From assembly GCA_905178155.1 (NCBI GenBank), contig CAJINV010000002.1:558376-622375 (forward strand): a stretch of DNA of 64,000 nucleotides. Reading direction: 5' to 3'. The DNA is from Amoebophrya sp. A120 (lineage: Eukaryota; Protista; Dinoflagellata). Both the position numbers and the translations under genes were made by a program. Shown in pieces: positions 1 to 32,300 of the stretch; position 1 is the first letter of the stretch; each line of letters begins with the position of its first letter. Under the pieces are notes generated by a model that made no database searches, had not been told where the DNA came from, and saw only the letters and a list, made by a program, of their open reading frames with translations.

Positions 1-1367
1 TGGCCAAGAAATCCTCGCACGAGTCGTTCACCAACTTCACGTAGGTGGTGTCCAGCACCTTCTGGAGTTCCGGAAACTCGAGCAACCTGATGAGTAAGTA
101 GTTCCAATTTGTCATGCGCGTCTGTGAAAAGCTCTGTGATTTGTCATGCGTTTTTGTCTATGATAATGGTAATTTTTTGTCAACATGAAGACCGATTATG
201 CCAGGAGATACGCAACACAAAATAAAATAATTCTACACACTATACCAGGTCTTGATGCAATCCAACGTCTTGAACACGGGCTTCGGCACTTTTTTAACGG
301 CGCCCACCTTCGCGACGTCCTGCAGCTCCCCTTCCTCCGCGGTTTCAAAATCAACCACCTGCTCCGTGCCGGTCCTGACGGAGCCGTCGGAGTTGTAGGA
401 ACGCTTGCAGCGGCAAACCTCGATAATCTGCTTGAGGACCATCATGGCCAGCTCCTCGTGGTACTCCTTCAACGGAAATTCCGCTGCCTTGGATTCGAAC
501 GAAGAGTGGATCTTGTACAAAACTGGCCAGGACTGGGAGTTCCCGATCAAGGTCTCCCCACGCTCGAGGACCAGGGTCATCGTCGTGCTGTCCCACTGCT
601 CAGCCTCCTCGGCGTATGCGAAGCAAATCAATTTTTTTCAGTGTTGTATCTCATCTGTCTTGCGAGTTTCACTTTCGTTTTGTTTTGGCTACGAAGTCGC
701 GCTGCAATAAAAGATCGGGAACGCAGGTCTTTTTTTTTCTGAATATGCAAGTATGGCGACCTGCCTTGTACGAAATCACGCAGCCCCCCAATGAATAGAA
801 ACTACAACGCCTGAAATCTTTTTTTGCATGTCATAGCACACTGAGAATCTCGAACGCATTCAGCCAGGCACCACAGTTCAGCGCCTCCATCAACAAGGTC
901 GCCTTCCGCACAAGTATGCAGGGGGTGAAAAAACAAAAGCACCTATACGAAAAATATGACAGCCGCCAACTCACATGTGAACACCGGCAGAGCATTACAA
1001 ATATAATCTGCATGACATAGAGCATAGAAATGTGGGCGATGTCATACTTCTCAATGTAGATGCTTTTCAAAAGACATCGCATACTTGACTCCGAGACGTC
1101 GGTGCCCAGAGCCCCGAACAGGTTTACGGCCTCACGCAGATTGCCCATGTCGGCGGACTCGTTGATCCAGTCCCGCTTGATATTGGACAAGTTGTACGAC
1201 TTCTTGCGCACAACCGCCCGCGCCTCCTGTTTCACATCCGTGTCGACTTTGTATCCCGGCAGCCCGCAGTCCAGAGCGAACTTGTCCGTGGTCGGGGTAG
1301 TGCCGTGGCGCTTCAGCTTGTTCTTCCCCCCGGCATTTCCAGTGCCGGCGTTGTTTCGCTTCGACAT
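1..1367 (-). CDS. Multi-exon hypothetical protein inside the giant element (3' end outside window)
   Basis: GC3-rich exons at about 1367-1020, 925-840, 620-245 and 105-1, separated by short AT-rich introns. No recognisable domain. Confidence 0.55.
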
Positions 1368-2756
1368 CTGCTAGTGCTGGATTTGTGGAAGAGGAGATGG
1401 TCTGGCAGTACGAAGCCAAGGCTGTTGCGCAGGAGAGGTTCAAACTCGGCGACCCGCGAAAGACTTCGGTGAGAGCGGCCGGTGTGCTATAGTTGCTGAT
1501 CAATGCGAGAGAAGAAACTGAAGGCCCAGGCGAAGATAGACGCTCGCAGACCGTCGCGGTTCTTTGATTGATGGTTCTGCTTTGAGTAGTAGTCCTTGCT
1601 TGCAGTCCCGCTATCGAGACTCCTACGCTGCACTACTATGCTTACCAGGACACTGGGTTTTCAACTCTGTCAAACAAGATTGATTTTACACGGAGCGGTT
1701 TTGGGGTCTTTCTGAAATTCGAAACCGAAACACCTTGCGACTTTTCTATAAGCAAGCACACTGCTGATTGCACTTAAGTCTTCGACTCGGTCCGAGAACT
1801 AGTCTTCTCTACTTTGTTTGCGATTTTGCGTGTGCCGTTTTTCGTCCCTCACAGGTACCGAGCGATCTCGCCTGAGTAGTTACTTAGTAATGCTTTGTTT
1901 GGCAAAGATATGCGACTCCTCACTACCGTTGCAAAACCTCTACAGTATATGTGCGCACGGATACTGGGGGTGGGGGCTGATGCCGAGAGTCGTCTCAGTG
2001 ATAGCGTGAACCTGCTGGCGTGGGAATAGAGCCGCTTGCCTTGATGTGAATGTGATGCTTCAAAATTATAAAGCACGAAGAAATCTGAGGGCCCGGCGAA
2101 GCCGGGGAAATACAGATAACAGGAGCAATGAATGCCCGAAACCAAAATAGCCCGCCACTGGAACATCGCGACTGGCAGAAAAAAACATCTACACAGACTG
2201 CATTTCTCGCTCGCTTTGCACGGAAGCTGCGTTGATATTCCAGAAAAAACTGGGCCCGAACTCCACAAGAAAAAAACACCGATAAAACGGCTGAATCAGG
2301 AGAGGGGGCCCTCGGGGGCTACTAGCAGGCCAACGAAGTCAAAAAAAAAAAGCGGGCTACCGACAAATACACATGAAGGCAATTTCTAGACGAGCTTTGC
2401 GCTTTTCCGTTTTACGCTAAGTGGCTAGGCCTGCGGGGGCCGAGAAATATTTGGCCCGGGGGGCTGTAAACTCGGGAGCCGGGCCTCGCCCGGCTCCCGG
2501 GTTTTAAAAAGCTGCCACGCGCGGAATTTATACTGCAAATCCGAGAGGCGGGCGGAGCCCGCCTCCCCGATTTTTTTTTTGCGCCCCCGCTTCCACCGAG
2601 GGCGGAAGGCAAAAAGAAAATCCCCAATACGGCCCACAGACCGGGGGCGGGCTACGCCCGCCCCCGCCCACTTTTTTTTCGGCTGGCCTCATACTCAGCC
2701 CTGTTCGAGCCGGATTCTGCAGGCAATCCCACCCCAGCCTCGGTTTCCAGAGAGGA

Positions 2757-2925
2757 TCAACCGCCCACCCAGATTTCAAACGGAAATCGAGGACCGGGCC
2801 CAATTTCAAACGGCAATCAAGGACCGCCTCCAATTTCAAACGGAAATCAAGACCCTCGGACGAATTCAAACGAAAATCAAGGATCTGGGACGAATTCAAA
2901 CGGAAATCAAGAATCGGTCCGAATT
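2757..2925. repeat. 30-bp period tandem array (about 5.5 units)
   Basis: Conserved aatttcaaacggaaatcaag core plus about 10 variable nt, period 30. Lies next to a GC-rich tract (2420-2750). Confidence 0.9.
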
Positions 2926-2942
2926 AGGTCTGATTTGGTCAC

Positions 2943-5900
2943 TATCTTAGTAATTTGTCTTGACCTTTTTATGATTTTTTTTGATCAGACCCCAAAACAT
3001 CTATTTGTCTTGCTTCTCATCTGTTGGCGAGGTTTCGTCGTTACTGGCAGTTCTGCTACCTCGTTCGTGGTTGAGAGGCTAGCTCTCGTGCGTGTGCAGT
3101 TGGTTCTGTTCAGAAAGCAGGTAGCAGCCAGGGGGGGCAGAGGGTTTTTACCGCACAGCGCTACTAGTGCCGCCGATGGAAAGATACCGCATCTCCTCCA
3201 GTGGGACCTCGCAACCCGCGACGACTTCTTCTTTCTGCTCGGCATCGAGCGGAGCGCCACACATACCCGCAGCGATGTCCAGAACGTTCTTTACCATTTT
3301 GTCGTAGTCCTCCTGCAATGCTATCATGTGGAAAATTTGCGCACTCCACCTATCAGGGTTGGGCTTTGTCATCTCGAGTAAAATCTACTATGATGCACTA
3401 CAGCGTTGGTCCCAATACATGACGTGACACAAGGGAGGGTCTGGCCCCGCATAGATACAACTCACATGCGCACAGAACACCTACTTCCCCACCCCCTGAT
3501 AGGAGTGCTCTTTCTCTCTTCACCCCACGCATACCCCGCTTCAGCATGTCCTCCTTGGCCCGATACCGCTGGTCCCATCCATATCGCGTCGAGTGGCGGA
3601 GAATCCAAGCCTGCATGTGCGCCCACGCAACCAAGAGCACCGTCACCCAGTGCCGGTCAACAACATCGCCCTCTGTGTAGCCAAGACGATGGACACCGCT
3701 GGACACAGTGACGAAACTTCGGAAAACTCGGTGGGCGGCAATTATTTTGTAAAGCGCCTTGGTTCTTCCGAGCGCCGAACAGGTTAGGGACTGCTTCAGG
3801 CCGGCTTTTTTCGTGTGGATGGATGTGCCATCCTGTATCTTCCATTCCCCGGGCGGTAAGTGCGCTTCCGCCCACTCACCGACCTCGTCCGTGACGGCGC
3901 GCCGCATGCGGTTAAGCTGCTTCGCCTGGGCGTCTGAAAGAACGAGGTACGCAGTTCCGGCGGATTTTGTTCCGGCAGAAACGCCCCCACCCTGCTCCGC
4001 GTCTTTGGCTGTCTTGTTACTAGTTGCCACAGGGTGTGGCCCGGTTGGTTTCGCCTTTTTCTGTTGGAAAATTTGCTTGTTCCGACCAACCACGCCGGTG
4101 GGCGAGGCGTGGTTATCAGTTGCCACGTCGACCTTTCGCTTCTTTGTGCCAGGATTTGCCTCGGCTACGCTGCTGTTGTTTGCCGAAGATGAAGAGGAAG
4201 ATGAAGAACCGGCGGCGGACGAAAACATCTGGAACTGGTCACCCTGGACTCGCACAGCAACACGAAGCCCCCTCTCGCCCGGCACTAAACCACCCTCCTC
4301 CGGCACTGCAGAATCTAAAATTTCTGCATCCTCTGCCATGCCTCCAGTTGCACCCCCTCCACCAGAGAGCATGCTCGTCGCAGCCTCTAGCAGGTACTTG
4401 TCGAGAAGGTGAGGAGAGTCCGGATGGCGCTCCAGTGGTGCTTTCGTGGGTTCCTCAGCTTCTTCCGGTGCTGTTCCGCGGGTAATCGGAGCCTCGGTGG
4501 GGAGCCAACGCTGCGCGGCCACATCGCGCCGCGCGCCGAGAATTGCATACGCGGCCCCGCGGTACGCGTCACTGAAGTCAAACTCCGAGTAGAAGTACCG
4601 GTCTGCCAACTCGCCAGCGCCGGAAGCAATCAACCCGCCCGCACCGTCTGCGGCGAGGCGCATACCAACAAACTTTTTTGGTCGATTCAGAACCCAACAG
4701 ACCAAGAGATGCTCCGTGCTCCCATCTTCAAGCTCAATCTTCACCAGGAGGTGGGTGCTGTCCTTCATCTGATCGCGCACGGCTTCGACTTCGAAATCGG
4801 CAAGACCGGCCAGAAGATGATCGGCGCCAGCCGCCTCTCCGCCCGGAGCGGCTTCTTGTTCCTCCCGGCCGATTTCCCCGAGTTCCCCCGCTGTTACGAA
4901 TGCTTCGTGGATTGTGGTGGCGCCCGCCAGGCTGCATACGTCCTTCACTATTTGCAGTGGCTCAACCCGCCACATATCCACCGTCCCGAGGGCGAACTGC
5001 TGCTCCGATGGAACACACAAGCGGCTGCGCTCGGTAGCCTGCCGCCCGCGCCACGTGCCAACACCGTTCCAGTTTTCCACGATGCTGCTGCGGATGTTCT
5101 CGTAGTACTTCTTCTCCACTAGGAGTGCCCGCTTTTGCTTTTCTTTTACTTCCCTCTGCGCCAGATACTCGGCCTCGAACCGCTCCAACTTCTCCTCTAG
5201 TTCTTTCTCCGCTCCGATATTGAACTCGCGCGCCGCCACGACGTACGTCTCCCAGATTTCCGGCCCGAGAACTTCCTCTGAGGCATCTCGGTTTGCGTCC
5301 CCGATGCTCATGCCGGGTAAATCGCCAAACCCGGTCATGAGGTCGGCGCGCGCGAACTCCGCGGGTACTTTGTGTCTGCACGTCTCGTAGCGCCAGTCCT
5401 GGTTTTCAAAAGCATCAAGTTCTGCGAGCGCGTCATCCCGTGCGCAAATCTGCTTCGAAAGCAGGCGGCCTACGTTCTTGGTATCAATCGCGACGATCCC
5501 GGACGGCGCGTTTTTGTCCTGCGAGCGCTGCAGCGTAGCATGCCGGCGCTCTATCAGAAGCGTATTTCGCGGCACGTGTTTCACGAGTGCAGCGAGCTCT
5601 CGCACAAACTCCACCGCGCTGCCAAATGGCAAAACATTTTTCCCCACCACTCCCGCGGCCGGTAGGTGCTGCTGCCCCTGGTACTGTCGGCAGGCCTTCT
5701 GGATCTGGGCGAGAGTGATCGTGGCTGGGTTTCCGCTTTCTACTGTGACATCCCTGTTGCAAAATTGTTCCAAAAAGGCGCCCTGTGCTTCCGCTCCTTC
5801 CTTTCGGTCGAACTCCGCCAGCCAGTCGAGGTGCTTGTGGTACGGGTTCTGGGTATGCAGCTCGAACGCAATGCTACTGCTTTTTGATAGAAAATATTGA

Positions 5901-8900
5901 TCGCTACTTGTCATACAAATCGCGACCTGAAAAGAGACGGAGAGACGGGCGGCCACGCAAGAATAGAAGACGAAAGCCGACGCTTTTATATGAGCAAGAC
6001 AACTACCAATTCTCCCGCTAGCACTTGCGGTTCTAGCACTGTGCAACTACGCATGACGCACTTCGTCTTCTCTTGCTTTTAATCCGCACCGGAGCTAACA
6101 TTAGAGCCTCCCGCTTACTCCCGCATGACAAATGCAAACTTGTGTCCTTTTGTCTGACATGCAAACTGGCAAAGGCAAATTTGTCTTGCATGAAGAGCGG
6201 CGTGATCTTCATGCGACCACTCCTCCCCACGCAAGACAAACGCTCAACTACGCAGGCAGCTAGCATCTAAATCTCCGTTCATAACGCACCACCCGCCCGT
6301 AAAACGCCGCAGCAAGTATCTCCAGGCCGTTCAGAGCCGCGGTAGAATGTTTTGCCGCGGTAGCAGGATCGACCGGCCCGAGCAAGCTCATTAAAGACCG
6401 CAGGCTGTCCGCGCGGAGGATGTGGCGAAGCTCGTCGACGCCCTTGTAGAACTGCTCGTGCGCCGTGTGGTCGCCCCCCATCGCATTTTCATGCTTCGCG
6501 ACATGGCCCTCGTATCGCTCGATGGGGCGGGTCAGCAAACTTACCACCATCATCGTGCAATCGACCCGGACCTTACTCCACTCCTTTCCCTCGAGGTGGA
6601 GGCGGGTCTTCTTGTCCAGCAGGCCCAAAATGTCCGCTACGACAACACGGGAAAGATCATCGCCACACCGGATCCACCTGCTGAAGGAGATGGGGCGTAT
6701 TCCCCGCGTTAGCTGTTGGAGGTTTCCGATGATTGCGTTCTTCGCTTCGGCGGGTGATCGGTACGCGCCCAGCTCCTCGTCCGTCAACACGAATGTCAGG
6801 ATGGTCTTGCCCTTCACACGCGATATGCTCATCTTGTAGAGGATGCTCGACAGACGCTTATCTTTTGCTGTAGCGGTTTTTGCTGCTTGTACTCGTTCCG
6901 CGCCATACGGCGTCCCCTCCAGATACGTCCGAAACGCCCGCGTTTGCCATGTCATAGCGCCTCCGCCCGCAGCTGATTCTTCCAACAAGGCGAACCGGTC
7001 CGGGCCAGTCGGGACGACAACGCGCGACGGGAGGTCCGACATCATGCCCGTCTGCGTCGTCAGCTGCTGCTTCCCGATCACCTTGCACGCGCCCCAAGTT
7101 TTCCTCTCCCACTTCGTCGGGTCGATGTCGTTCTCCAGCAGATAGGCATTGGCGCCCTCCTCCAGCGCCGTCCCGGCGTCGTGCTCCTCGCAGTGACTCG
7201 AGACTGTTACTAGGTGGGCCCCCGGCGTTTGGCGAAAAATATCTTTCTCCTCCAGCACTGCCATGCCGGTGGCCTTGTGCGTCAAAACCATGTCCGGCCC
7301 TCGATCAGAGCTCGTGTTGATTACTAGAAGCGGAGGTAGTTGCTTTTGTTGTGCTGTCGCTACGACACTTTTCAGATCACGCATGACAATGTCTGCGTTT
7401 TTCTGGGACGGAATTCTTGTATCGGTGAGAAGTTGCTCGAGGCCGGTCCCGCCTGCTGCTGCTTCTGCGATTTTTGTTACCTTTTTGCTCGGCAGGAGGA
7501 TCGTCGACGTCGGCACAACTACTTCATGAAGATTCTCGCCCGCGTACCACTTCACTGCCATGTGCGTCACCATCCACTTCGCCGCTTGGTCGACGAGAGT
7601 CTGCCGCCCGCCGCCAAGTATGTCCATCGACAATTTCGTTCCGCATGGGGTCGCGTCGCTCATGTGGGTCAGCAGAACACTTCGCGTTCCCGGGTCGGCA
7701 ATTATCTGTGCCGCGAGGGTTTCCCCGGCTTCTTTTGCAAGAAGTGATGCTTTATCAAAATGAGCATCTTCTCGCGGACCTCCAGTCAGAAACGGGTCTA
7801 GCGTTCTCGCCAATGTTGCGCTGACCCCAGCCAGGTCCACTTGCTCTGGAGACGGTGAACGCTCGCGAGGACCTCCTGAATCGGTGGCAGGAGGAGGAGA
7901 ACTGGGCTGCCCGTCACCGTCGTCGCCATCTACTACTAGTACGTCTTCCCCAGCGTGAAGCCCCCCGTCGTCCATCCACAATGCCCCGGATTCAATCGCG
8001 GCCAAGGCAGTGTCGGAAACATTTGCGGCCGGTACCTCCGGCTCTGCGGCCCCAACGTCGGCACGTATGCGTTACAAAAAATAGCCAGCAGAGATGCCTC
8101 CTCGAACAATCCTTTTCGTATTTTCATGACCAACATTTTGCACCTCCTTTGCGCTCGATCTGAAAGCACAATTCGCGGAGGGGAACATGCGCCCTTAAGG
8201 TGTTTGTCATGCGAATTTTGAAAAGGATAGGACAGGAGCAGTCATCACTGCCGGAACATTTGACACAAACATAAATTCCTCGCGAGGTTGGCAATCGTGG
8301 TTGCCGCTGGTTTCATTTGCGATGCTGCTGCTGCCCCAAAGATCGTCAACGGCTGCGAGCCCATCGAACGCGAAGTAGTCCCCTTGTGCCTCAGCAAGGT
8401 AGGCGTCCACTCCACGTAAAGCCATTCGGGGCGGAACGGGCGAACTGGTTACCTCTGAGAGCGATGTGTGGCGGCACGGCCTCAGATTGTCGTCGTCCGA
8501 AATTTTCAACACCAGGCCGGAGCAGCCGACTGCTTACACTGGTCACGCGGGGCCAGGAGGTCTAGTAGTGCCGACCGTTTTATTCGTTCTTGCAGGATGT
8601 GCGTTCGAAGAGAAACTTGGGACACAGTTATCTCTTCCATCACTTCACCGTCGGCGCCATCGTTGGGTGTTGGTTTGCCTTCGTCAACGAAATCGAGCGT
8701 GCGACAGCGCACTGGCGGTAAGTTCAAATTTTCCACAGAAGCGAAAAAAAACTGCTCTATGGATTTCGTCGTCTATGAAGAGTTGCTGCGCCGTGCCACG
8801 TTGTGGCCTCACTAGACCGGAAAAGAACGAAGGACCGACCTCGTAGAGTCTCCTTCTCGTCGTTCTTGAGATGTTTGTCGTTATGCCTGTAAAGTCAGTT

Positions 8901-9564
8901 TATTGAGAAACGGCACAAGAAAGTGGAAGTGCCTACTTTCGTTTTTGAGGCTACTTTTGCACTTTGCTTGATCGAACGCTACTCATACTCAGCTCAATGG
9001 ATCCTGAAAATTTTTGGTCGGTGTGACGACTTGCGCAATAATATGTCTTGCAGCTTGTTTTGCGTGTTACGCTCAAGGCAGCATGATCGAAGCGAGCTAC
9101 TACATCAGAGTGGCACATCTCGACATAAGGCAATCTGGATCGACATCTTCACGACGAGACACGACAGAGAGGGGCAACAGCGTGCTCCTCCTGCGCTCCA
9201 CACTTACACTCAGCTCGAGCAACGATTTGACGTGTTTGCAATGCGCTCAATGAATAAGAACTAAGATGAACGAATGTAGCGACATCGTTCACAGACAATC
9301 CGAGATAGGATGCGATGGGAGGTGGCAATGTAAGAAGGAAAAAGGACACTATGTACGACAGGAAGACAAAAAGCGGAGGCAATCAATGCGCAAGCAAAGC
9401 CCACTACTGGCAGAAACGAAAGGATGTCCGTAAAGGCCGAAAAACGAAATAAGCACAAAACAGCATAGGAGTCGGGAGCAGAGGCGGGTGTGAAGCAGGG
9501 ACGCAATAAAGCCGCCGGGAAACAAAGAGCTGGAAAGCGAAATAAAGCGGCGGACTACAACATA
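2943..9564 (-). mobile_element. Possible nested 6.6-kb TAT...ATA transposon carrying transposase B
   Basis: gtcac|TATcttagtaatt ... gactacaacATA|gtgac brackets the gene. The TIR is degenerate. Confidence 0.35.
3148..8736 (-). CDS. Transposase B: spliced hAT-like DDE transposase (5' exons uncertain)
   Basis: Motifs in hAT order: HMSDATP (D1), SSDRGPD (D2), HCEEH (CxxH) and FSRW in ORF 6260-8005, then VPRNTLLIERRH (E) in ORF 3398-6046. NLS-like PGTKKRKV. Last exon 3372-3148. Confidence 0.7.
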
Positions 9565-9796
9565 GTGACTAAGAAAAGGCGGCGCGACTCATGGAGATAA
9601 ACTCTACGACAGACGGACGGAAAACCGAAAAAATGGAAGCTACTAGTCCGGACATCAAGGGGAGGAAGGAGTCGCACTTTCTTGAGATACAAGCTGCAAG
9701 CCGAGCACTTCGCCACACCAAAAAGTGTAAATTTCGGAATTTTTGAAATTCGTTTGAAATGCTTAATTATTGCATTTAGCGCCGCGTGCTTCTGCG

Positions 9797-12700
9797 TTAA
9801 TTGTTCTTGTGCATGACAAACGCGATGTACCGGGCTGGGTGGCGACCACCTGCTTCGTTGCGGTCCTTGCGGTCCACCTTAGCCTCACCGTCGTCGTTCT
9901 TCTGCCGCTTGTTGCCATCGAGCTCCTCCTCGATCTCATCAATGGACTTGTACGCGAAGCCCTTCTTTTTCCGCAACCGCTCCTCCGCCAAGTGGTACCA
10001 CATGACCCAGTTGTGCTCCGAGAGGCAGACATCCTTGAACAACTGCGCCTGCTCATCGTACGACAACTTTTCGAACTCGCGCATGGTGAAACGGGACGTC
10101 TCGTACGACATGTGGTTGACCCACCACAACTTCTCATCCGGCATCAGCGACTCATATGCGAGCGCGGTGATATCCAAAGCGGAGTACAACGTGGCGTCCT
10201 TCAAATCGAACTGCACCTCACCGGTCTCGTCGCATATGAAAAAGCAAAACTTGCTCCGTCATTATTGCATTTGCGTTTCTACTACAGCTCGTTTTTAAAT
10301 TGTCATGCGTTTTTAAATTTTTAGAACCACAAATGCAATGATGACGAAGCACGTTTTGCAAGGGTATCGCAGGCGTTCAAGTCAATCGCGGAGGTGTAGA
10401 AGTCGCAGTCGGTCAAGAGCATGGCGTGGAAGTGGCAGTCTTTCCACATCGGCGGGTACCGGAAAGTAGACGCCGGAATCAGGACCTTCTCGATCGTGTG
10501 CTTTTGGTCGGCCTCCGTCGGTAACAGCGTGTTCAACTCTTTGGCCACCTCGGTGTCGGATTTCGGCATGGGGGCAACTGCGGCCAAATCGGTGTAGGAA
10601 ACGACGCCGTTGTCGTAGTGGCAGATCTGGACCGGGCAGTTGCTGATGCAGTGATGCACCACGACCGGAATACCCTGATCCAGCCGCTGCTTGACCTTCA
10701 TCATGTTGTTAACCCGGGCGGACAGGGCGCGGCGCATGGCCCAACTGGTCGGTCCGAAGTTCAAGCAAGCCAGCAGCTCCGCACCCCGCATACCGACGTT
10801 ATCGGCCATCTTCGCCGGTCCTTGGTTGCGGAACTTAGTGGGCAAGGACATGCACAGCTCCGTATCGTAGATTTCCGGCGCGCGGAGCATGGAGGTCATC
10901 TTCTTCACGCCGGCTCGCAAAGTACCAGTACAGTGGTTCTCCACGCGCACAGCAAGGTCCAGGCGGGCGGACTGCACGTCGTCCTCGGTGATCATGTTCA
11001 GCGACTCTTCGGCGTCCGCGGGGAACACGGCGTACTCGATAGCGGAGGCCTTGAACGTGGGCACTCGCCCGTCGCGATCACCCTTCAAAAAGCGCTCTCT
11101 CTGCATGGAGAAAAACGAACCCGCGCAGTTGATCCGCTTGTCGTTCTGCACGTGACGTTCCGCATGCGGCTGTTCTTGTTGCATCTCGCACAACGGAGTG
11201 TTGGCTAACTTCTGAGCCACGTATTGTTTCACCGAGTCGATTTTGCCTTGGTTGAGGAGGATGGCCTGCGACCGCGAGAATTTGCCGGGTTCGTAGCTCA
11301 GCTGATCGAACGCACAATCCAGCATCCCCTCCCACAAACCGAGCTCAGTCGGAAACTCCTCTTTTTGGGAGACGCAGAGGGTTTCGAAGAACCCATACTG
11401 CGGATCAGCCAACTCAAACAAGTAGCGGCTAATGGTTTGAAACAGCTGCTTCTGACCCTCCAAAATTCCGACTTTGCCGTGCCGGCCAGAAGCCTGCTGG
11501 ATGCAGTGCAGCGCGCGCTTCGCGATGGCGTACTTAGCCTGGGCCTGCTTGATTTGGATGAGCTCGCAGGTCGGAGCAGGACTGCCCGTTGTGAAGGGGT
11601 GCAACAACACGTCCGTCATGCGCTCAGCAACGTCCTGCGGCAGCGGTTCACCAGGCCCGATTTTGACCAAGTTCATCAACATCTTGCACTTGGAGTGGCC
11701 GAATTCGGACATCTCGATCACGCAGGTGGTCATGCCCGGCTTCAGCTCGGTCTGTATCAAGCGCTGCAACTCCCGCGGATCCGAGCCGAAATACGCGTCA
11801 TCCTCCTCGTCGGACTCGAGGCCGTCATCGTCAGCGTCGGGATGGAGAGCGGCCTGCGCATTGGCGTTCACGACCAAGGGGCGCACTTCGTACAAGTACA
11901 TCAAGAGCCGCCACTTCCACTGATCCAAGAGCAAGGCCGTGTACAAGTCGCCGCACCAGCGCGTGTCGACGCCGCCTTGGATGGGCAGACCTTTTTTTGA
12001 TGAAGAAATCAATAGATTTTAGGTGGTGGAAGGAGAAAAATTTGCATTTTTTGATGCCGCGACTCAGCAGAGGTTTCTAAGTGAAAACTTAGACCTCTCA
12101 ATTTACCTCTATCTGAACGCCAATTACTCAGTGTGATTAAGAGGTTTACTCCGAGGTTCATTGGGAGGTCTCTAGAGAGGTCCCCAAATGCCTTCCGCCG
12201 ATGGTATGATGAAAAACAAAGCATACCATCGTGAATCAATCAAAAATAACAACTTATACGTTCTTTCAGCATGTCGATCATGGTCAAGTTGTGGGTTGAG
12301 CGCCCGGCTTTGGCCTCCTGCATGCAGTACTCCATGAACGCCTTCTGCAAAAACGGGTTGTCCGGCATGTTTTCCAACGCGTTCAGCATCTTCTCCAGCA
12401 AGCGGACACGGGCGTCAAAAAGGTCACCCATGTTGGTGCGCTTCCCAAAGGGGCCTCTCATCAGCGCTTTAATAGCGCGCCGGATCTTCTCGATCCCCGT
12501 GTACTTGGACTTCGCCGTGTTACTGTCCCTGTGACAGGGGCCTGGGGTGAACGTGATGCACACCAGCTCGCACAACTGCTGCCAAGCAGCCATTTCCCAC
12601 GATGCCTGATCGGTCATGAGGTTGACAACAAGGTTGTCTCCCTCTTCCCAATCGGCGCCATCGTCGTCCTGCGCGACCCACTCAGCGAAACCTTCCGCAC

Positions 12701-13765
12701 CCATGATGGCACACAAGTACTCGAGCGCTTTCTCGGCGGATTGGCGCGAGGCCTTCTTGTCTTTCGAGTCCTGCGTGGACATGGTCATCTTCTTGTCAGC
12801 CGCATTGATCTGCACGGGCCACGTGGTCATCTCGAGCGCTTCGCCACCCAAGAAAAGCGGATAATCTTCTTGATTGAAGGTCTGTTTTAAATTTTAGCTT
12901 TTGATATTTAGACTTCGATAAATACATGACTTCATTAAAATTTGTCATGCTGTGATCAAAACAAAAGTAAAAAGTACGTTCACGAGGGTGGTGCTCCGTT
13001 TCCGGCGCTTAGTGTCATCATGGGCCAAGGTGAAGAACGCATTGCGCCGGCGCTGCTCGGACGCCATGCCGGTAATGCGGAGCCAGCGGTCATCAAAAAG
13101 TCCACGCGAGCGAGACATCATAGCCATGCAGCGACGCAGGATCCAGGCCTGTGCTCAGAAGTTGATGATCATATGAGATGACATACATCGCCACGCTCGC
13201 ATCACAAATGAAATTCTAAAACTAACAACAGAGCTTCGTGGTACCAGTTGATGGCTTTCGGGCGCCAGGTTGACACGCTTCTTGCCGCTATCGACGACGG
13301 CGTCGATCTTGGCGGCCACCGCGGTGATCAACGTGTCGACCTCGTTGCCCACCCAGACGTCCGGAAACTTGACCATGCCCATACCATTCTGGTCGAAAAT
13401 CTTGCGCCAGTGCACGCGGTTCTCATTCTCGACGATGTCCCACGCAATGAAGGTTACCTGCGTTTTTAAAAGTATGAATATGAAAATTGGTGTGCTTCGA
13501 GCGCATGACGACAAGAATAAAACGACTATCTGCATGACAAAAAAATCAATACCGCCTTCTGGACAGTGCGCGTCGCCGTGATGCGACCACAGTCGGAGAT
13601 GCCGAGCTCGGCCAACGCATTGCGACACACTGCCACGCTGCGCTGGAAGTTCGTCGGCTGAGTGGTGTGCTGACGGAGATTGACACATCCTTCATTATCG
13701 GAGCGAGTAAGTGGATTGATAAAACGTTTTTGCGTGCCAGCGTTCATCGCTAGCTGCCACGACAT
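9797..13765 (-). CDS. Transposase A: spliced hAT-like transposase-fold protein, catalytic E apparently replaced by Q
   Basis: Exons at about 13765-13557, 13458-13245, 13149-12977, 12881-12259, 11991-10355 and 10228-9797, mostly joined by GT-AG introns. Motifs TLAHDDTK, LMTDQAS, GPCH, VDTRW and SNCPVQICH. Confidence 0.65.
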
Positions 13766-14515
13766 TTTCACTCTTCCTACGGGTTTTGACTGTGAGGGAA
13801 CTGTTGCGTTTTTTTGTAGACAAACAAGTTAATTGACGAAAAGACTACACTACTTCCAACACACAAACAGGCACGCGTGGTTGCAGCGAACAAAATACCG
13901 ATGGACTTCGCAGTACTAGGCGCAGGCACTTACTCTTAGTTTTTTCCTTTAAATTCAACATGAATCTTCTTCCGAGGAATTACACCAGACGGCTTCGAAG
14001 ATTATTTCGTGTTTTTGCAGCTATGGCTTGATGTAACAAGCATTATCCCTCCTTCACTAACCGTAATTCCGCTTTATAGTCAACCGAATACTTGCTGCTT
14101 CAAATTAGATGCCTATTTTCAGCGCGGCTACGCTCAAATCATCATCAGACATTGCTCGTGAATTAGTATAGTACTAAAAAGCAATAGTCTGTAAAGAAAG
14201 TAGGAGAAGAAACGCTCCTAAAACCGAATGACTCTGCTGTGCAAATTTTTCGCAAACCCCTGTATTTCAATAGCTGGGATAAGGCTATCATCGATGTTGC
14301 TGCGATGCGGCTGTATCCTTTCATAAATTTTTTCAGAAGCGAAAGTATACTAGTGCTTTGTCCTCAATTATAGTTGTTCTTGCAGCTACAAATAATAGAA
14401 CGATAAGGAGGAAGCAGTAGAAACAGCTTAAAACTCAATAAACTGGACCTAATACAACACTACAACTCAAATAGAGTAGTCGATTTTGATTTTCCAATTC
14501 GCGACGAAGCGCTAC

Positions 14516-16298
14516 TTACAACTGCTTCGCCTTCTTCGCGGCTTTTCCTTTCGCCGGGGCGGCTTCGCGCTTCATCGGCTTCTTGTCCTCCACCTCCTCC
14601 TCCTTCTCCTCCTTCTTAGCGGCCTTCTTCTTAGGGGCGGCTTTCATAGACTTCGTAGTGGCCTCCACACCATCGTCCATGAGGGGCTGCGGGTCGGCCT
14701 TCTGGTCCTTCTTAGCACCCTTCTTGCCGGTGCCCTTCTTTTTCTTATCATCCTTTTCTTCCTTCTTCGCGTCGGAGTCCTTCTTTTTGTCATCGGACTC
14801 ATCGGGGGAGTTGTCCTTCATCTCCGCGTCACCGTCGGTCTTGGGGGACAAGTTCGCCACCACAGACATGACGTCCTGCATGTCGTTCTCGGTCAAGTTC
14901 GCGTAGTCCACCTTGCCAGCAGTCGCCTTCATCTTGGCGATGATTTCCGCGGTCATGTACCCCTCCGGGACAGCGGATCCGGGGACCGGAGTGGCCAGGT
15001 TGGGGACGGCCTTGGCGGCGCCCTTAGAAGCGAAGAAGTCGTCCTGATATTTATGTTTTATATTGAGGCTCGAACAAGAAGACACGAACGAAAATACGAC
15101 GCCAAATAAGTTGACTTATCATTATAAAAAACCACGTAACTCAACTTGACTTGTAAAAATTTAAAAATCAGGCACCGATTCGCTCAGCTTCAAGGAGCCG
15201 ACGTTCTTCTTCACGGTGCCCTTCTCGGCCTTGGGGACAAAACCGACCTTCTCCTCCTTCGCACCGATGCGGGTCTTGGCGTGGGGGTTGTTGGTGAAGG
15301 CGTTCAGCTGGTGCTTCTGTATATGATTTTAGTTGGTTACTTCTATGCTCTTCTACTACGCCACAAGTATGGAACATGTACATGAAACACGCATGACAAT
15401 TTTAAAATTCAAACTTGTTCTACCTGGAAGTCGAACTTCAGCTCCGGCACGGCATCCTTGTCCTCATCTTCGGTCGCGGAAGCGGAGGCAGACTCCATGT
15501 CAGAACCGTCGTACGCGATGCGCTTCGGTAACGACTTGTGAAACAACAACTTCTTCAGCACGTCCAAGTTACCCAAGGTGTCCAGCAGTTTGTCACCCAT
15601 CGCGCGCGCATCCAGGTCGGGCGAAGCCGCATCCACGGTGGGGGCGAACGCGGTGATCTTCAGCTTCCACTCAGCGGCAGACATCTTTTCGGACAGCTCT
15701 TCGGCCGCAGCCTTCAGGGTGGGAGCGTTCTTCTTTTCCGGTGCCTGTTATTGATTTTAGGTGGTCGCTCAAAAAGAAGTCACGTTTGCATCTCAGCGTG
15801 ACAAACTAGCATAATGATGTGGTTCAAAACTTCTATAAAAAAGCAAACGCGACTATACCGCTTTCTTCACTCCCTTCCAGACCTGGTTCCAGAACTCGAT
15901 CACGGCGGCCTGGTCCGGAAACTTGTGCCGGATGCTACGGGTGGCGGTGTTGCTGACGCAACCCAACAACTGCGCGGTGTTGTTGCAGCCAAGGTCGACG
16001 TAAACTGATTAGTTGTTTCAAGTGGAATTCGAAAATTTAGAAATCAGCATGAACATGTCATTTTCAATGGTGATATGCATGAAAAAAAAATTATCTTACA
16101 GACGGTCTCGCGGGGAAACGGGCAGTCGGGCATGGCGCTGATGTAAGTCCACCCAGCCTCTTGGGCCTGCACCACCAACAAGATGGCCGACAGGCTGCTC
16201 ACACCGTACTCCAGCTGGCTTGCGGAGAGACGCATCCCAGCAGCCAGACAATCCTGCAACTTTTGCAGGGCCACACTCTTGGCATTTTTGGACATTGC
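14516..16298 (-). CDS. Five-exon hypothetical protein with a Lys/Ala-rich (histone H1-like) C-terminal tail
   Basis: Exons at about 16298-16100, 16004-15859, 15744-15424, 15317-15176 and 15045-14516, joined by GT-AG introns. Tail KSMKAAPKKKAAKK...PAKGKAAKKAKQL. Confidence 0.7.
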
Positions 16299-17229
16299 GA
16301 AGAACGTCGTTGTTGTTGTTTTTATCGCTCGTTTTTTCACTCTTCCCTACGGTTGGAAATTAGAAAGCAGAATTGGCATGATCATGAAGATGGCATCATC
16401 AAATCCGTTATATGATACGCAAAAAAAAACCTTTTTCTTATAAGCGGGTTCGCGATTGACATGAAGATGGACGCGTGGTAAGTCAGCACAAGACTAACGA
16501 CACACAAAAGGGGGGGGATCTTGAATGCGTGTTGTAATGTGGGGCAGTACAGGTCTTATTAGGTGTGAATCCTAAAGAGCTTAGTACTTTGGCCAGAATT
16601 GAACGTCATGCACTACCATCCTGCTGTGGTGCAATTGAACAAACAAAAAAAACACAGACCCAGCCTATTCAACTCATGGCGCCCGTCGTTCTCAACTCGG
16701 TATTGCGCCGCTATTCTCTTCTTTTTCATCTCATTTGCATACATAAAAAAAGCTTTTTCTCGGTGGCCAGTGCTTCTGTATTCTGATGCTTCTGGTTTCG
16801 ACTTAGGGTTTAGGCCTTCTGGATGACCACTCTTCACATCTATCTTTCAACCAAACAACAGGACACTCCACAGTCAGAGTAACAGCCTGCTACGTGACGG
16901 GGCACCAGGAGCGCGAAGTCAACCGGCACCTGGACAAGCTGCAAAAAACCCGCTTTTAGAAGGCTTATTCCGCCCTCTAATTTCACCTTAATCCATGACC
17001 AAACTAGTTACCTTATCTAGCTAGCTCAAATTGGAACGTTCATTTTGACTTGCATACTCTTCTCCAACTGCTACCACCACGGGAGACGGCACCTGTACGC
17101 GCGCACGCGACGCGCGAAACAACACCTAAACAGCACCTGATACTGCAATGTTTTTAATTTGAAATGGGGATTTTTGAATCGCGTTGACAATAATCACTCA
17201 GACGCTGCCATACATTTTTACATTTGATA

Positions 17230-20200
17230 TTGCACCTGATCGTACAACGTTTTCTCTTTTTGCTTCAAAACTTGGATTATCACCTGCAGGTATGTCGGAG
17301 TTTGGAAAGAACTTGTGATGCGGGCTCGACAGTCATGAGGACGCCTCCAATCGCAGCGAAGCACGACAAGTTTTTGAGTCGCTAGGCGTTGCCCATTCTG
17401 CATGGCAAACTGCGTTTCTGCATGACAGTAACCACTCGGGGCGCTTGGATAACGTACATGACAGACTTGAGACTCATGCTGGCCGAGCATGACAAACCTG
17501 GCCTTCTGCCCGACCCAGACATATTTGCAATTGATATGGAGAATTTTCTGGTAGGGTTCGAGCCGCAAAGCAACGTATTGTTCCGTAATTTTGTCGTACT
17601 CTTGGTTCGCGGCTTTTGTCATAGAAGTTGAGGATGTAGTACAACCACCGCCGGGTTGATGCGACTGCATTATGTTGTTCGTGGCACCAACATCAGAAAG
17701 TGATGTTTTGGACCATGTTGAAGATGAAGTCGGAATCATTTGTGCTGCTGAAACACCACGACTACCAGCAACACCTGCAGATGACCTGTCCGAGCTGACG
17801 TTCCCAAAGGAAGACTCGTGTGTAGTGGTCGTGTTGCTGGAATTTGTGTTGGTATCCTGTGCAAAAGTATCGCAATCTTCGTAGTGATTGCAGGTATGCA
17901 TCAGCATTACAAACTCCTTTCTTATGGTAAATCCGCATTACAAACTCCATTTCTCATCCTGGTTGAATTCGTACTAGTACGATGCTTTTGTTTTGCAATC
18001 CTTAGATGGTGGAATTTAGCAATGTGTTGAAAACTGCCCCTGCGGAGGTAGGCGGAGGGGGCTCGTCTAGCACTTCATCTTTGTTCTCCATCTCCGGGTG
18101 GTCGTGGTCGAAAATAGATTCGTTTTTGCCCATAGTTGCAGAAGTTCCTGGATGCTGATTCCCCTGCAGCTTGATGTAGTTTTCTTCTTCTTCTTCTTCT
18201 TCTTCTTCTCTCACCGACAGCACATTCATCTGTTTCAAGATCGGATCCACATCGTCCAGATCCTCCTCCTCGTTCACCGTGCCAATCGACGACATGAGCA
18301 CAGATGGGTTCACCGCGGTTCTTTTGTGCTTCTTATTACTAGATGTTTGTTCCCCCGGAGCAGCTGCACCTCCGGGGTTGACTGAAATAGTTGACCCTGT
18401 GGAAGTTGTTGACAACACGGAGGAATTAATGATCTTGTTTCTCGACGTAGACACGGCATTCAATCTCCCGTGTAGTTGCTGCTGTTGCTGCCCCCCGGAG
18501 GTTCCACGTGGGGCTGGGGAGTAAGTCGTGCGTTGTGGTTTATTTTTCAATTTTAAATTTTCATTTGTTTTCCCAGGAACGACACCTCCGCCACTCCCGC
18601 TGTTCAAATTCCGGGTGTTCACGTCTTGGTCATAGTAAAGCGAGTTACTGTTCGTGTGCTGCTGATGGCCATGTTGTTGCAGTCCTGATGAAGTAGTTCT
18701 ATTCAGCCCGGATGATGATGATCCCGATCGTCCGGCATGAAGATTTTTACTGTGCGGGGACACCAGAATGGAGCTCGGCGACGGAAAATTTTTCTCCTTC
18801 CAAACTAAGGTCCGCTCGAGACTGAGGTTCAGGAGGTGGAGCGCTCGGAGTTGAAACTCTGCTTCTTTCACTTCTAATTCCTCTTCGTCAACGTTCTGCA
18901 GCAAAACGTGCATCTTCGGCGCCTGGTCTGGGGGAATCGTGGGGGACTTGGCAGGAACACCAAGCTGGTTATTTTCCGGTGGCGGTGACAGAGCGTACCT
19001 GAGTTTATGCTTTTCCTTTCACTTCGTAGTTCATTCTGCGTTCCTTGCATTACAAACTAACCAAGCTTCTCGCAAAGTATACAAAAAGCCATCTCGTCAA
19101 CCAAACTCATGATCAAGCAGAAGCAAGCCCTTCCATACCATATGTTCCACATCTCCTTCGACCCCTCCTTATCCGCCACTCCACCCACCGGTATGACCAC
19201 TGTGCCCAGGATCTTTTGCTCACGCGTCTTATTTATGCATTGCAAAAGTATCACACTCGTATAAATGCATTACAAATTTCCTCAGCATGAGAAATTAAAT
19301 TTGTAATGCGGATTTACCTTGAGAAAAAAATTTGTAATGCATGATTGCAATACGAGTACGACTACGATACTTTTGCTCGCGCGTCTTATTTTCAAAAACC
19401 GTCAACTCAACCACCTGTTGATCAGACTTCGTGCATTCCTCGATGTCGCTGAGGTAATTCGACGGTGATGCTGCACACGAACTGCCCGTAGTACCGATAT
19501 GAATTGCAAAAGCATCGTACTAGTAGTATAAATTGCATTACAAATTAGCTCAGCGTGAAAAATCAATCGGGTGCTCGCTTCTTCAGGCGAGCGAGTAACT
19601 GTTTAGCGTACTTTCTATGTTCCTGCTTGTAAATAGCTGGTGAATAGTGTTTCAACTTATCACCACCGGAGCTTGATGAAACAAAACCCTTTTTAGCTGT
19701 GAGCCAGTCAAGCTCGGGGAGTTGCCTGGGAGAATGTCAGCCGGAGCCAGCAATCAGCCCTGGCTTCAGATGGGCGCAATACTACCTCCTCATCCGTACT
19801 GCACCTATCAACCTCCGCACAACCGCAAGGTCCTAAGCAAGCCGCCTCTGCTTGCCCTTCCTTGCGTCAGAACAGGCGCCAAAGAACTGGCAGGTCCTAA
19901 GCAAGACGCCTCTTCTTGCCCTTCCTGCCGACCCTACCTGAGCCTGAGCTCTGGCAGTGGTACGTAAACGCCACCAAGAGACACAGGAAAACACGGAGTT
20001 ATGCCCTGCATCTCCCAGTTGCCCCCCTTTACCCTAGCCCTAACCCTTGAACCCTACTGCAGCGCCGCATTACTCGGCGCCCGACTACTTCGCAGCACTC
20101 CTGGATTGGTTGTAGGTCCATTTTTGCTTCATATTTGCGCCTTTTGATGTCCTGCGTCGCTCGTTAGTGACTCTTGACCCGAAAGTAGGAGGTGCGTCGG

Positions 20201-29300: not shown

Positions 29301-32300
29301 AGAAATGCCCTTCCCGCGTAGCAAAAATCGCATCCCCTTTGCTGCTCACGCAATACAGATTTTTTTGGAATCCGAATGCAGCATCACAAGTTGCATTCTT
29401 CCAGACCCAGACATTTTTACATTTGATATTGCACCTGATCGTACAACGTTTTCTCTTTTTGCTTCAAAACTTGGAGTATCACCTGCAGGTATGTCGGAGT
29501 TTGGAAAGAACTTGTGATGCGGGCTCGACAGTCATGAGGACGCCTCCAATCGCAGCGAAGCACGACAAGTTTTTGAGTCGCTAGGCGTTGCCCATTCTGC
29601 ATGGCAAACTGCGTTTCTGCATGACAGTAACCACTCGGGGCGCTTGGATAACGTACATGACAGACTTGAGACTCATGCTGGCCGAGCATGACAAACCTGG
29701 CCTTCTGCCCGACCCAGACATATTTGCAATTGATATGGAGAATTTTCTGGTAGGGTTCGAGCCGCAAAGCAACGTATTGTTCCGTAATTTTGTCGTACTC
29801 TTGGTTCGCGGCTTTTGTCATAGAAGTTGAGGATGTAGTACAACCACCGCCGGGTATAGATTCGTTTTTGCCCATAGTTGCAGAAGTTCCTGGATGCTGA
29901 TTCCCCTGCAGCTTGATGTAGTTTTCTTCTTCTTCTTCTTCTTCTTCTTCTCTCACCGACAGCACATTCATCTGTTTCAAGATCGGATCCACATCGTCCA
30001 GATCCTCCTCCTCGTTCACCGTGCCAATCGACGACATGAGCACAGATGGGTTCACCGCGGTTCTTTTGTGCTTCTTATTACTAGATGTTTGTTCCCCCGG
30101 AGCAGCTGCACCTCCGGGGTTGACTGAAATAGTTGACCCTGTGGAAGTTGTTGACAACACGGAGGAATTAATGATCTTGTTTCTCGACGTAGACACGGCA
30201 TTCAATCTCCCGTGTAGTTGCTGCTGTTGCTGCCCCCCGGAGGTTCCACGTGGGGCTGGGGAGTAAGTCGTGCGTTGTGGTTTATTTTTCAATTTTAAAT
30301 TTTCATTTGTTTTCCCAGGAACGACACCTCCGCCACTCCCGCTGTTCAAATTCCGCCACCTCCCGCTGTTCATTTTTGCATGACAAGTTCATTTTCATCA
30401 CTATCGCATGGAGTAGTAAGTACTTTCAGCTCCATTTCCTCCGACTTCAGCGTTATCACACAGAAAAAAGTTTTATTGTTTGCAGTCGCGCATGACAAGC
30501 TTGCCAATCATGCATTTGCATGCTATGATTGCAACATAAATTTGTCACGCCGAAGACACAACAACTTTTTGCCCATCTGATAAGCGCAACCGCTTCCTCA
30601 TCCCTTTTTCTCCTCGCCTCTAGCTCTGCCTGCTGCGACTTCTTCAGCTCTGATATCGCGGCCAACTGCTGCTCCAAATCGCCCCGTAAACTGCTCACCT
30701 CGTAATTCAACGAAGCAATTTCGGCGTCCTTCGCTCCCAACTGGAGCAGTCTCTCTTCCAAATATTTTTGTAGCGACCCCTTTTCGTCCTTCAAATCGTG
30801 CAAAGATTGCATCAGCTCGGACACCTGGGACTGCATTTTCTCGCTCTGTTTCATGGTGGAAGACGCGGAAATCGAGGTCGAATGGTTCTGCAGTTTCCAC
30901 TGCCGGAGCTGTTGCTCGGTTTCCTCTAATTATTGCAAGGAAAAATCCTCGCTCCCCATATTGCAAACGCATCCGTCTGAAAATTTGCGATGCAGATTTG
31001 TGGCCACAGATCGCGCCGGTCTTGCAGCAAGCCAAGCGCAGGCAGTCCGCCACGTTATGCAGGCGATTTGTAATGCCGTAGGGACTACATGGCAGCCGTG
31101 TACCATGCTAGGCGCCTACACCAAAAGGGCCCTACCTAGGCTTGCGATCTGCGTGCAGTCCTCTACTGCAAGACAAATCGGATTTGTGTACGCAAATCCA
31201 GCATCAGAGATTTCCTTTTCGATATGGGGAGGGGGGATTTTTCCTTCTGATACTAATTCCGCCGTTTTTAAAGCCAGTTGCGTCCGGGTGTTCACCTTCT
31301 CCGCGTTGGACTGCGCTAAATCCGCGGTGATGCGCTCCACGAGTTGCTCCAGCTCCTGGACGCGGGCGTCCGTTATCGTATTTAAAAACGCCCTCACCGC
31401 GCAGTTGTAATGCAAATCTGCATACTGAAAACGTTTCTTATGCGGAGCCCCATGGGAGCAAGCATTTTCTAGCCGTGTTTTGGAATTTGTCATTCTCCAA
31501 TCAGCATGATATACTAAGTTCGTGATGCTGCTGAACAACCTCAAATAACAGCACACTACGAGTCCAAATTTGTCATGCCAAACAGGCAAAACTTGTGGAT
31601 TTGTCTAGCCGATTCCCCATCTTGACTCTGGGGTGGGGACGTTTTTACATAGGATATCCGTGTTCAGAGACCCGTCGTCGAAGGGGGATTTCAGGGCGGC
31701 CTGATAGATCGTGGTGTTCTTGGGCAACTTCAACTTCTACAACAAAGATATTATCAATCACATCTTGTTCTCAATCATAATTCCAGTATCATTTTCGTGC
31801 ACGACCTTGACATTACCAACACGATGGCTGCCTCTTCTAGGAGCAGAGAAACACGGTTTAAAAATACGTCCAGCCGCAGCTGCACGACAGTGAACTGGCT
31901 TTTCACGCTGGACAGCTCCTCCTGGGTGGTCTTCAGTTCGTCTTCTTTCTGCTTCTTTTGGTTTCGCATCTCCCCCATTTCCACTTTGAGCTCCGCCAGT
32001 TCGTTGTTGCAGGACACAAATTGTGCGTGCTTTTCCATTATGCGCTGAAAATATGTTCGGGTCGGGAAAGAACCTGTGATGCTGTGACTTGCGTATGATT
32101 GAAGCCCTTGCAATGGCAGCCAAGCATGACAAGTTTTTGGGACCACGCCTGCTGATGCCTAGCACGCATTACAAATTGCCTTTTTGCATGACAAAGGAAG
32201 CTCCTCTTTTACTACACCTGCAATACAGAAGATTTTCCAGGAATGCAAGACACGCATTACAAGTTCCACTTTATTTCAAGACCCAGACGTATTTGCATTT

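Follow-up and report, generated by a model that had tools for sequence, protein, structure and literature searches.

Amoebophrya genomes are a leading case of mass intron gain. For the strain with TAT-starting introners, 29,850 repeated introns have been reported, and general transposase-mediated introner mobilisation was ruled out since a search for Repbase domains found no transposase in that strain (PMC7789003). Introners with 5-nt target site duplications (TSDs) and without a named enzyme have been reported in Polarella (bioRxiv 10.1101/2020.10.14.339549). The described transposases that bear closest comparison with the gene considered here are those of hAT, Kolobok and Dada elements. A C/DxxH motif after the second catalytic D is a feature of the C/DxxH clan (PMC9587614, PMC3706591). 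The residues of the maize Ac transposase, a hAT enzyme, are D301, D367, C401, H404, R463, W464 and E719 (PMC6027215); typical hATs measure 2.5-5 kb (PMC3942097), and hAT TSDs, normally of 8 bp, vary in length, being 5-7 bp in hAT5/6/7 (PMC12730594). Kolobok elements combine C/DxxH with TTAA TSDs, accessory genes and 5'-RR..YY-3' termini (PMC9587614). Dada encodes a C/DxxH DDE protein of ~1400 aa in multi-exon elements of 5-11 kb, was at first recognised by profile methods only and is present in the alveolate Perkinsus, with DxxH, no terminal inverted repeats (TIRs), 6-7-bp TSDs and small RNA genes as targets (PMC3706591). The locus compared with these systems lies in Amoebophrya sp. A120 (assembly GCA_905178155.1, contig CAJINV010000002.1, positions 558,376 to 622,375), in a stretch of 64,000 nt, called the window below, whose positions serve for all coordinates. 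Its gene B, on the minus strand, is regarded as a real and probably functional transposase gene, hAT-like though very divergent, within a TIR-bounded element. We consider it likely that it is the four-exon transposase gene of a cut-and-paste DNA transposon of ~13.7 kb, from a very divergent lineage and probably hAT-like in its working. What was observed in favour of this reading comprises the motifs, which one homologous gene model conserves, the open exons, the inverted ends together with the subterminal repeats, and a shorter relative that shares these ends.

Gene B appears as two open reading frames (ORFs); their frame is the same, and six stops lie in the interval. The first (6260-8071, 603 aa) holds SDAT (7660-7649), SDRG (7309-7298), CEEH (7192-7181) and FSRW (6685-6674), and the second (3398-6046, 882 aa) holds PRNTLLIERRH (5572-5540; IERR at 5554), all where the original prediction had placed them; the long C-terminus after the E, put there at about 700 aa, comes to ~730 codons with the last exon counted. 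As also predicted, annotation at the ORF level would overlook the gene, since the motif set is split over two ORFs, and the Pfam level misses it too. The five-motif ordered pattern was picked after the sequence had been seen; of 5000 shuffled sequences, 14 contained a loose version of it and none a stricter one. The critical residues D, D, R, W and E of hAT occur here in the same order, assigned by motif and conservation rather than by alignment to a hAT profile, and CEEH or CVEH lies 38-40 aa after D2, as in the C/DxxH clan. The spacings from D2 to C (38 here, 34 in maize Ac) and from W to E (230 and 255) are close. The proposed hAT-like set D-D-CxxH-RW-E stands as a layout and an order, but not as membership of hAT, given the missing Pfam match, the missing BED finger and an H at E+3. 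Gene B is not filed as hAT, because neither the hAT C-terminal Pfam dimerisation domain with F/W at E+3 nor the N-terminal BED zinc finger was found. Dada resembles it in having a large C/DxxH DDE protein from a multi-exon element, but inverted ends and CxxH are present here.

A HMMER search against 1.84 billion representatives returned two proteins at E<=0.001, and a profile search gave a third. All three, the only relatives found, are unannotated gene models labelled Amoebophrya sp. AT5.2 (g750.t1, g6092.t1 and g816.t1), with 45-51% identity to gene B and with motifs and C-terminal blocks in common; as proteins they are referred to as P0006, P0003 and P0004, without regard to the order of the gene models. 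The complete one among them, P0006 (1508 aa), retains all the motifs, in the forms THMSDGT, NTSSDRGSDM, SHCVEHD, FSRW and VEREHATLQRSQD. Of the aligned sequences that have a residue at the position in question, three of three conserve D1, two of two D2 and CxxH, and four of four W and E. Measured over 11 aa around each motif, identity to P0006 reaches 0.91 at D1, 0.82 at D2, 0.73 at both CxxH and RW and 0.64 at E, with 0.47 overall, and further conserved blocks lie near the C-terminus, within the extension that follows the E. Three paralogues with ~65-68% core identity occur within that one other Amoebophrya proteome, which fits a mobile family. A word-index search with ORF1 alone gave none among 7996 candidates. 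The single locus from a metagenome scan, L001, was a 33-aa match with a stop on an apparently unrelated fungal-type contig and was rejected as a pattern-selected chance match; 81 stretches of viral contigs held no relative and no copy of the element end.

Very likely, the two ORFs form part of a single gene with four exons, running from ATG 8425 to the stop at 3148, because all five motifs recur in a 1508-aa gene model from Amoebophrya with 47% identity; the spliced product would measure ~1490 aa. The splice junctions are those suggested by homologous gene models. The predicted division of the motifs between exons agrees with the three relatives, each of which has ORF1-like and ORF2-like sequence in a single chain, with four exons in place of the two supposed, and ATG 8425 is a more likely start than the 8736 first given. 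The putative exon 1 (8231-8425, starting MALRG...) aligns weakly to P0006 at its N-terminus and to the corresponding part of P0003, with a score of 45 against a best of 49 in 300 shuffles. Intron 1 (8066-8229, splice sites approximate) has TAT-N7-AAA at both ends, a pattern as published (PMC7789003), was found in the introner census and can firmly be read as a decayed introner. Exon 2 (6284-8065) carries D1 (7657-7655), D2 (7306-7304), CxxH (7192-7181) and RW (6679-6674) and is 47.5% identical to P0006 aa 81-620, free of stops over ~540 aligned codons. The predicted intron 2 (5849-6283, 435 nt) has a TA donor and an AG acceptor, with ends TATG...CATA, and gives a junction of exactly the length in the homologues; Amoebophrya genes often have non-canonical introns (PMC7789003), and an alternative, canonical GT-AG intron (6289-5849, 441 nt) would keep the frame and give a product two residues shorter. 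A codon GC pattern is present in exons 2 and 3 and absent from intron 2. Exon 3 (3535-5848) contains the candidate third catalytic E (5551-5549), the invariant HATLQRSQD block and the long C-terminal extension, and is 35% identical to P0006 aa 623-1443, again without stops (~800 aligned codons). In the predicted intron 3 (3321-3534), a canonical GT-AG pair is formed as G+TATG...GATA+G, and the frames of exons 3 and 4 are joined. Exon 4 (3148-3320), with the stop codon, matches the C-terminal ends of P0006, P0003 and P0004, the alignments scoring 83, 65 and 64 (maxima of 47, 47 and 48 in 300 shuffles each), which bears out the 3' end at 3148 in the original prediction. Introns 1-3 (8229-8066, 6283-5854 and 3533-3322) all start with TAT[GC] and have [GC]ATA at, or at most 5 nt from, the 3' end; words of this type occur at ~0.4% per base in the gene region. 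Introns 2 and 3 may, more weakly, also be taken for decayed introners. Internal likeness to intact introners is little or none for introns 1, 2 and 3, being equalled by 5, 5 and 40 of 100 shuffles. As for expression, the contigs labelled "RNA?" of runs X3, X4 and X5 (one sample) leave the gene uncovered, the raw-read run X7 has only 2 reads over 18 kb, and contigs of X6 run unspliced across the exon 3 boundary, none of which is evidence either way.

The element was read from public contigs aligned to the window. A contig of 13,716 nt from run X1, which is possibly the window's own source and so not independent, covers 1-9798 without differences and carries near its other end an exact inverted copy of 9729-9764; this 36-bp stretch belongs to the right end of the element (9729-9800), and its inverted copy lies ~3.9 kb upstream of the window. 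A second X1 contig (1,796 nt) consists of the right end (9687-9798), the repeats at 2744-2974 and the left end, with the gene absent. This 1.8-kb non-autonomous relative shows 15 differences over 112 right-end bases. The repeats comprise 4.6 copies of a 30-bp unit (2773-2911, plus strand) with the word TTCAAACG, which is also found in the inverted end: five of its six window copies lie within the 30-mer repeats and the sixth in the right end, at 9751-9758. The total count of TTCAAACG in the window is not above chance, and its clustering is what matters. The 30-bp repeats are likely subterminal transposase-binding repeats, and between 2775 and 2902 they contain AAACGG, which we take to be the word bound by the maize Ac transposase. 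Three GC-rich palindromes (2468-2504, 2537-2573 and 2642-2666) lie in the interval that separates the element's two genes, beside the tandem repeats. The second of these genes is spliced, lies on the minus strand at 1-1370 (wider range <1-2006), continues upstream of the window and would be an accessory or cargo gene; contigs of X3 and X4 labelled "RNA?" join 84 to 244 with GT-AG ends and carry the inverted end, and one such contig of 5.4 kb extends through the left inverted end. A Pfam search gave no match for this gene. Subterminal repeats and an internally deleted relative are shared with hAT elements; the C-terminal extension and the second gene set this element apart. A generic scan of 1-17400 for TIRs with TSDs returned no credible element around gene B.

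The exact border of the element bears on its affiliation. Three right-end junctions agree to 9800, the copies other than that of the window diverging after 9800/9801; from position 9800 they read ATTGT (window), AATCT (X1) and ATAAT (X6). A terminus at 9799 (5'-TAACG) fits these junctions, the flanks then being A-n-n-n-T in all three, the pattern expected of a palindromic 5-bp target, and TAACG would then fit the hAT end consensus (T/C)A(A/G)NG (PMC6027215) at this one end, the outermost bases on the left not being visible. A terminus at 9796 next to a TTAA target fits as well, and with it a TTAA-specific, Kolobok-like element of the same DDE chemistry, in which 9797-9800 would be the duplicated target and the second gene an accessory gene. 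All three right junctions have TTAA with divergence after it, the second gene lies inside the element ends, and membership of the C/DxxH clan, TTAA TSDs and accessory genes are Kolobok features (PMC9587614). The end beside TTAA would, however, be 5'-CG and not the 5'-RR of Kolobok, the T at the fifth base of all three flanks is unexplained by TTAA targeting, and the CxxC zinc-finger pattern is missing here. The RW motif and the TDxGxxM-like context of D2, which we take to be hAT-like, also count against this alternative, and it is considered improbable. These readings cover the right flank only; a matching duplication on the left would read ATTGT for 5 bp, TTAA for a Kolobok-like element and ATTGTTCT for 8 bp.

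For a hAT-like transposase, the following mechanism may be envisaged. The protein would have an RNase H-like core, in which D1, D2 and the E of IERRH would bind metal, and, following CxxH, an insertion made up of helices alone. On the model of hAT and MULE chemistry (PMC5499845), it would bind the TTCAAACG repeats and the ends, and excision would proceed via a hairpin on the flanking DNA, helped by the W of RW. The 3' ends would be joined to a staggered target, leaving a short duplication, most simply of 5 bp beside TA termini.

A number of observations weigh against the hAT-like reading. In the protein, the D1-D2 (117 here, 66 in maize Ac) and H-W (169 and 60) spacings are much longer than in maize Ac; E+3 is H in all four sequences, where F/W is invariant in hAT (PMC6027215), and the R at E+14 is absent. 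D2 and CxxH rest on one homologue, because P0003 is without that stretch and P0004 begins downstream of it; the E is locally the least conserved motif (74th percentile), and the alignment contains other invariant acids (QRSQD, FARADL). The joined chains of the relatives are gene models whose supporting evidence is not visible. In the element, the two ends match at ~15 of the 30 further letters seen beyond the 36 identical bases, and its 13.7 kb is far above the typical hAT size. Pfam gave no family at E<=10 for P0006, P0003 or P0004, hAT domains included; CxxC is absent from P0006, P0001 and P0002, and the Pfam searches matched no BED finger. In a single-sequence AlphaFold2 (AF2) model of exon 2, with a predicted local distance difference test score (pLDDT) of 37.7, D1 is placed after a helix. 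An AF2 model of the P0006 core from a 5-row alignment reached a pLDDT of 40.4. In this better model, strands lead up to D1, D2 and CxxH and helices come next, which counts in favour of the reading, though weakly at a pLDDT of ~30 in these places; the other model disagrees at D1. Foldseek found no match at E<=0.001 with these low-pLDDT models, which are too poor to be informative, and VIA-align listed unrelated helical bundles (best Z 7.9) and no transposase, likewise uninformative at such model quality. NCBIfam and PHROGs gave weak unrelated matches only (best NarL, E 0.009, far below the cut-off), and sequence profiles of the PDB gave no match in one search and two low-complexity matches (E 0.08 and 1.3) in another.

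With no profile support and a motif pattern chosen after the fact, the protein might be something other than the transposase of the element, either a cargo or host gene with chance motifs or a domesticated transposase within old ends. The three acquired introns with decayed ends, which make the gene old, and the divergence of the non-autonomous relative at the right end would also be in keeping with this. The correct order of the five motifs and the conserved block around each of them, the several paralogues in another Amoebophrya proteome, and the retention of ends and subterminal repeats by the internally deleted relative argue for a transposase instead, and we regard this explanation as slightly less probable than the Kolobok-like one. 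The least likely alternative is a dead copy whose ORFs are no longer joined, broken by an introner-like insertion at 6283-5854 that has no intact TSD (flanks TGCGT/CCCAG) and needs a non-canonical donor for a junction of the homologues' length, but a canonical in-frame GT-AG intron exists, non-canonical ones are common in Amoebophrya (PMC7789003), and both long exons have stayed stop-free while the insert lost its TSD, which points to selection after the insertion.

The transposase reading of gene B acquires a wider interest from its surroundings. Short dispersed TAT...ATA elements (~150 and 260 bp) with 5-bp TSDs are found at 20464-63379; these introner-type repeats, candidate non-autonomous clients, have the TAT-N7-AAA repeats and short direct repeats of the introner description (PMC7789003). 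Taken with the labels of the homologues, they point to a genome of Amoebophrya type. Among 37 paired elements, which include some mispairs and of which two are one duplicated locus, an exact 5-bp TSD was found in 25 and a 5-bp TSD with one mismatch in 8, and exact duplications of 4, 6, 7, 8 or 9 bp in none. The 5-bp TSD is established for these TAT-ended repeats of the window only, and not for the element of gene B. It would not by itself be new, because 5-bp-TSD hAT5 families have already been described; hAT5, compared here by description only, is placed among animal Blackjack-related hATs and provides a precedent for a hAT-type enzyme with 5-bp TSDs (PMC12730594). Introners have been described as lacking a transposase (PMC7789003), and intron 1 of gene B is such an element. 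A tentative proposal, which we hold to be possible but rather doubtful, is that gene B represents, as the first member to be recognised, a DDE lineage specific to Amoebophrya, with TA termini and 5-bp TSDs and invisible to Pfam, and that it or close paralogues mobilise TAT-ended introners, those in its own gene included. The link is weak and suggestive only: with a terminus at 9799, the element and the introners have a TA start in common, and a collinear 45-nt similarity of their ends is equalled by 33 of 1000 shuffles (p~0.03). Against it, none of the 25 exact introner TSDs is A-n-n-n-T, the two kinds of end diverge after the second base, and the introners of the window are only 67-88% identical to their nearest neighbours.

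The main value of gene B lies in reopening the question of how Amoebophrya introners move, because the published dismissal rested on no transposase having been found: a transposase-like gene that escapes domain searches, in an inverted-end element beside introners, removes the premise of that argument and gives an enzyme to test. If an introner-mobilising lineage is indeed at hand, the published no-transposase conclusion would be overturned and tens of thousands of introns explained. The known range of C/DxxH transposases would also be widened, including by a long C-terminal module. An earlier study sought mobilisers by BLASTP against known transposases (PMC9860276), which would likely miss the gene B protein. 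In the excerpt of the survey PMC12130899 (hAT places 1-60 of 84; 19 of 118 Amoebophrya rows), TIR families are classed as unknown superfamily, and the only Amoebophrya row naming hAT is finally classed as non-LTR. Literature on Amoebophrya transposases, introners and hAT yielded no description of the gene B family, subscription journals and Repbase lying outside the search.

Further observations concern the neighbourhood. Gene A (9800-13700, minus strand) contains the hAT-like words TDQA (12614), GPCH (12542) and TRW (11964), with no CxxH there, and its last ORF ends at the TTAA of the right junction of the gene B element. It has no Pfam match and no profile similarity to gene B, and no longer homologue was found. 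Contigs of X3 and X4 labelled "RNA?" over gene A have matches that end at 9801, with 28 further letters not visible; this stop may reflect a poly(A) tail placed exactly where the element ends, or else an empty site. A 116-bp intron-like insert in gene A (10244-10359) has 38-nt inverted arms, a type unlike the TAT family. The region 12036-12229 is matched by a 411-nt contig at ~2x local depth, and variant letters of the same depth occur at ~17000-17085; another repeat family is possibly involved. The word TTTGT[AC][AT]TGC occurs 103 times between 17200 and 64000 and 11 times between 1 and 17200, where several copies lie in introns, and is likely an internal motif of introners and their relics. 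Near-identical local duplications (17208-18413 / 29407-30155 and 58894-64000), with 99-100% identity over 300 nt and a 2869-bp tandem unit, have copied introner insertions too.

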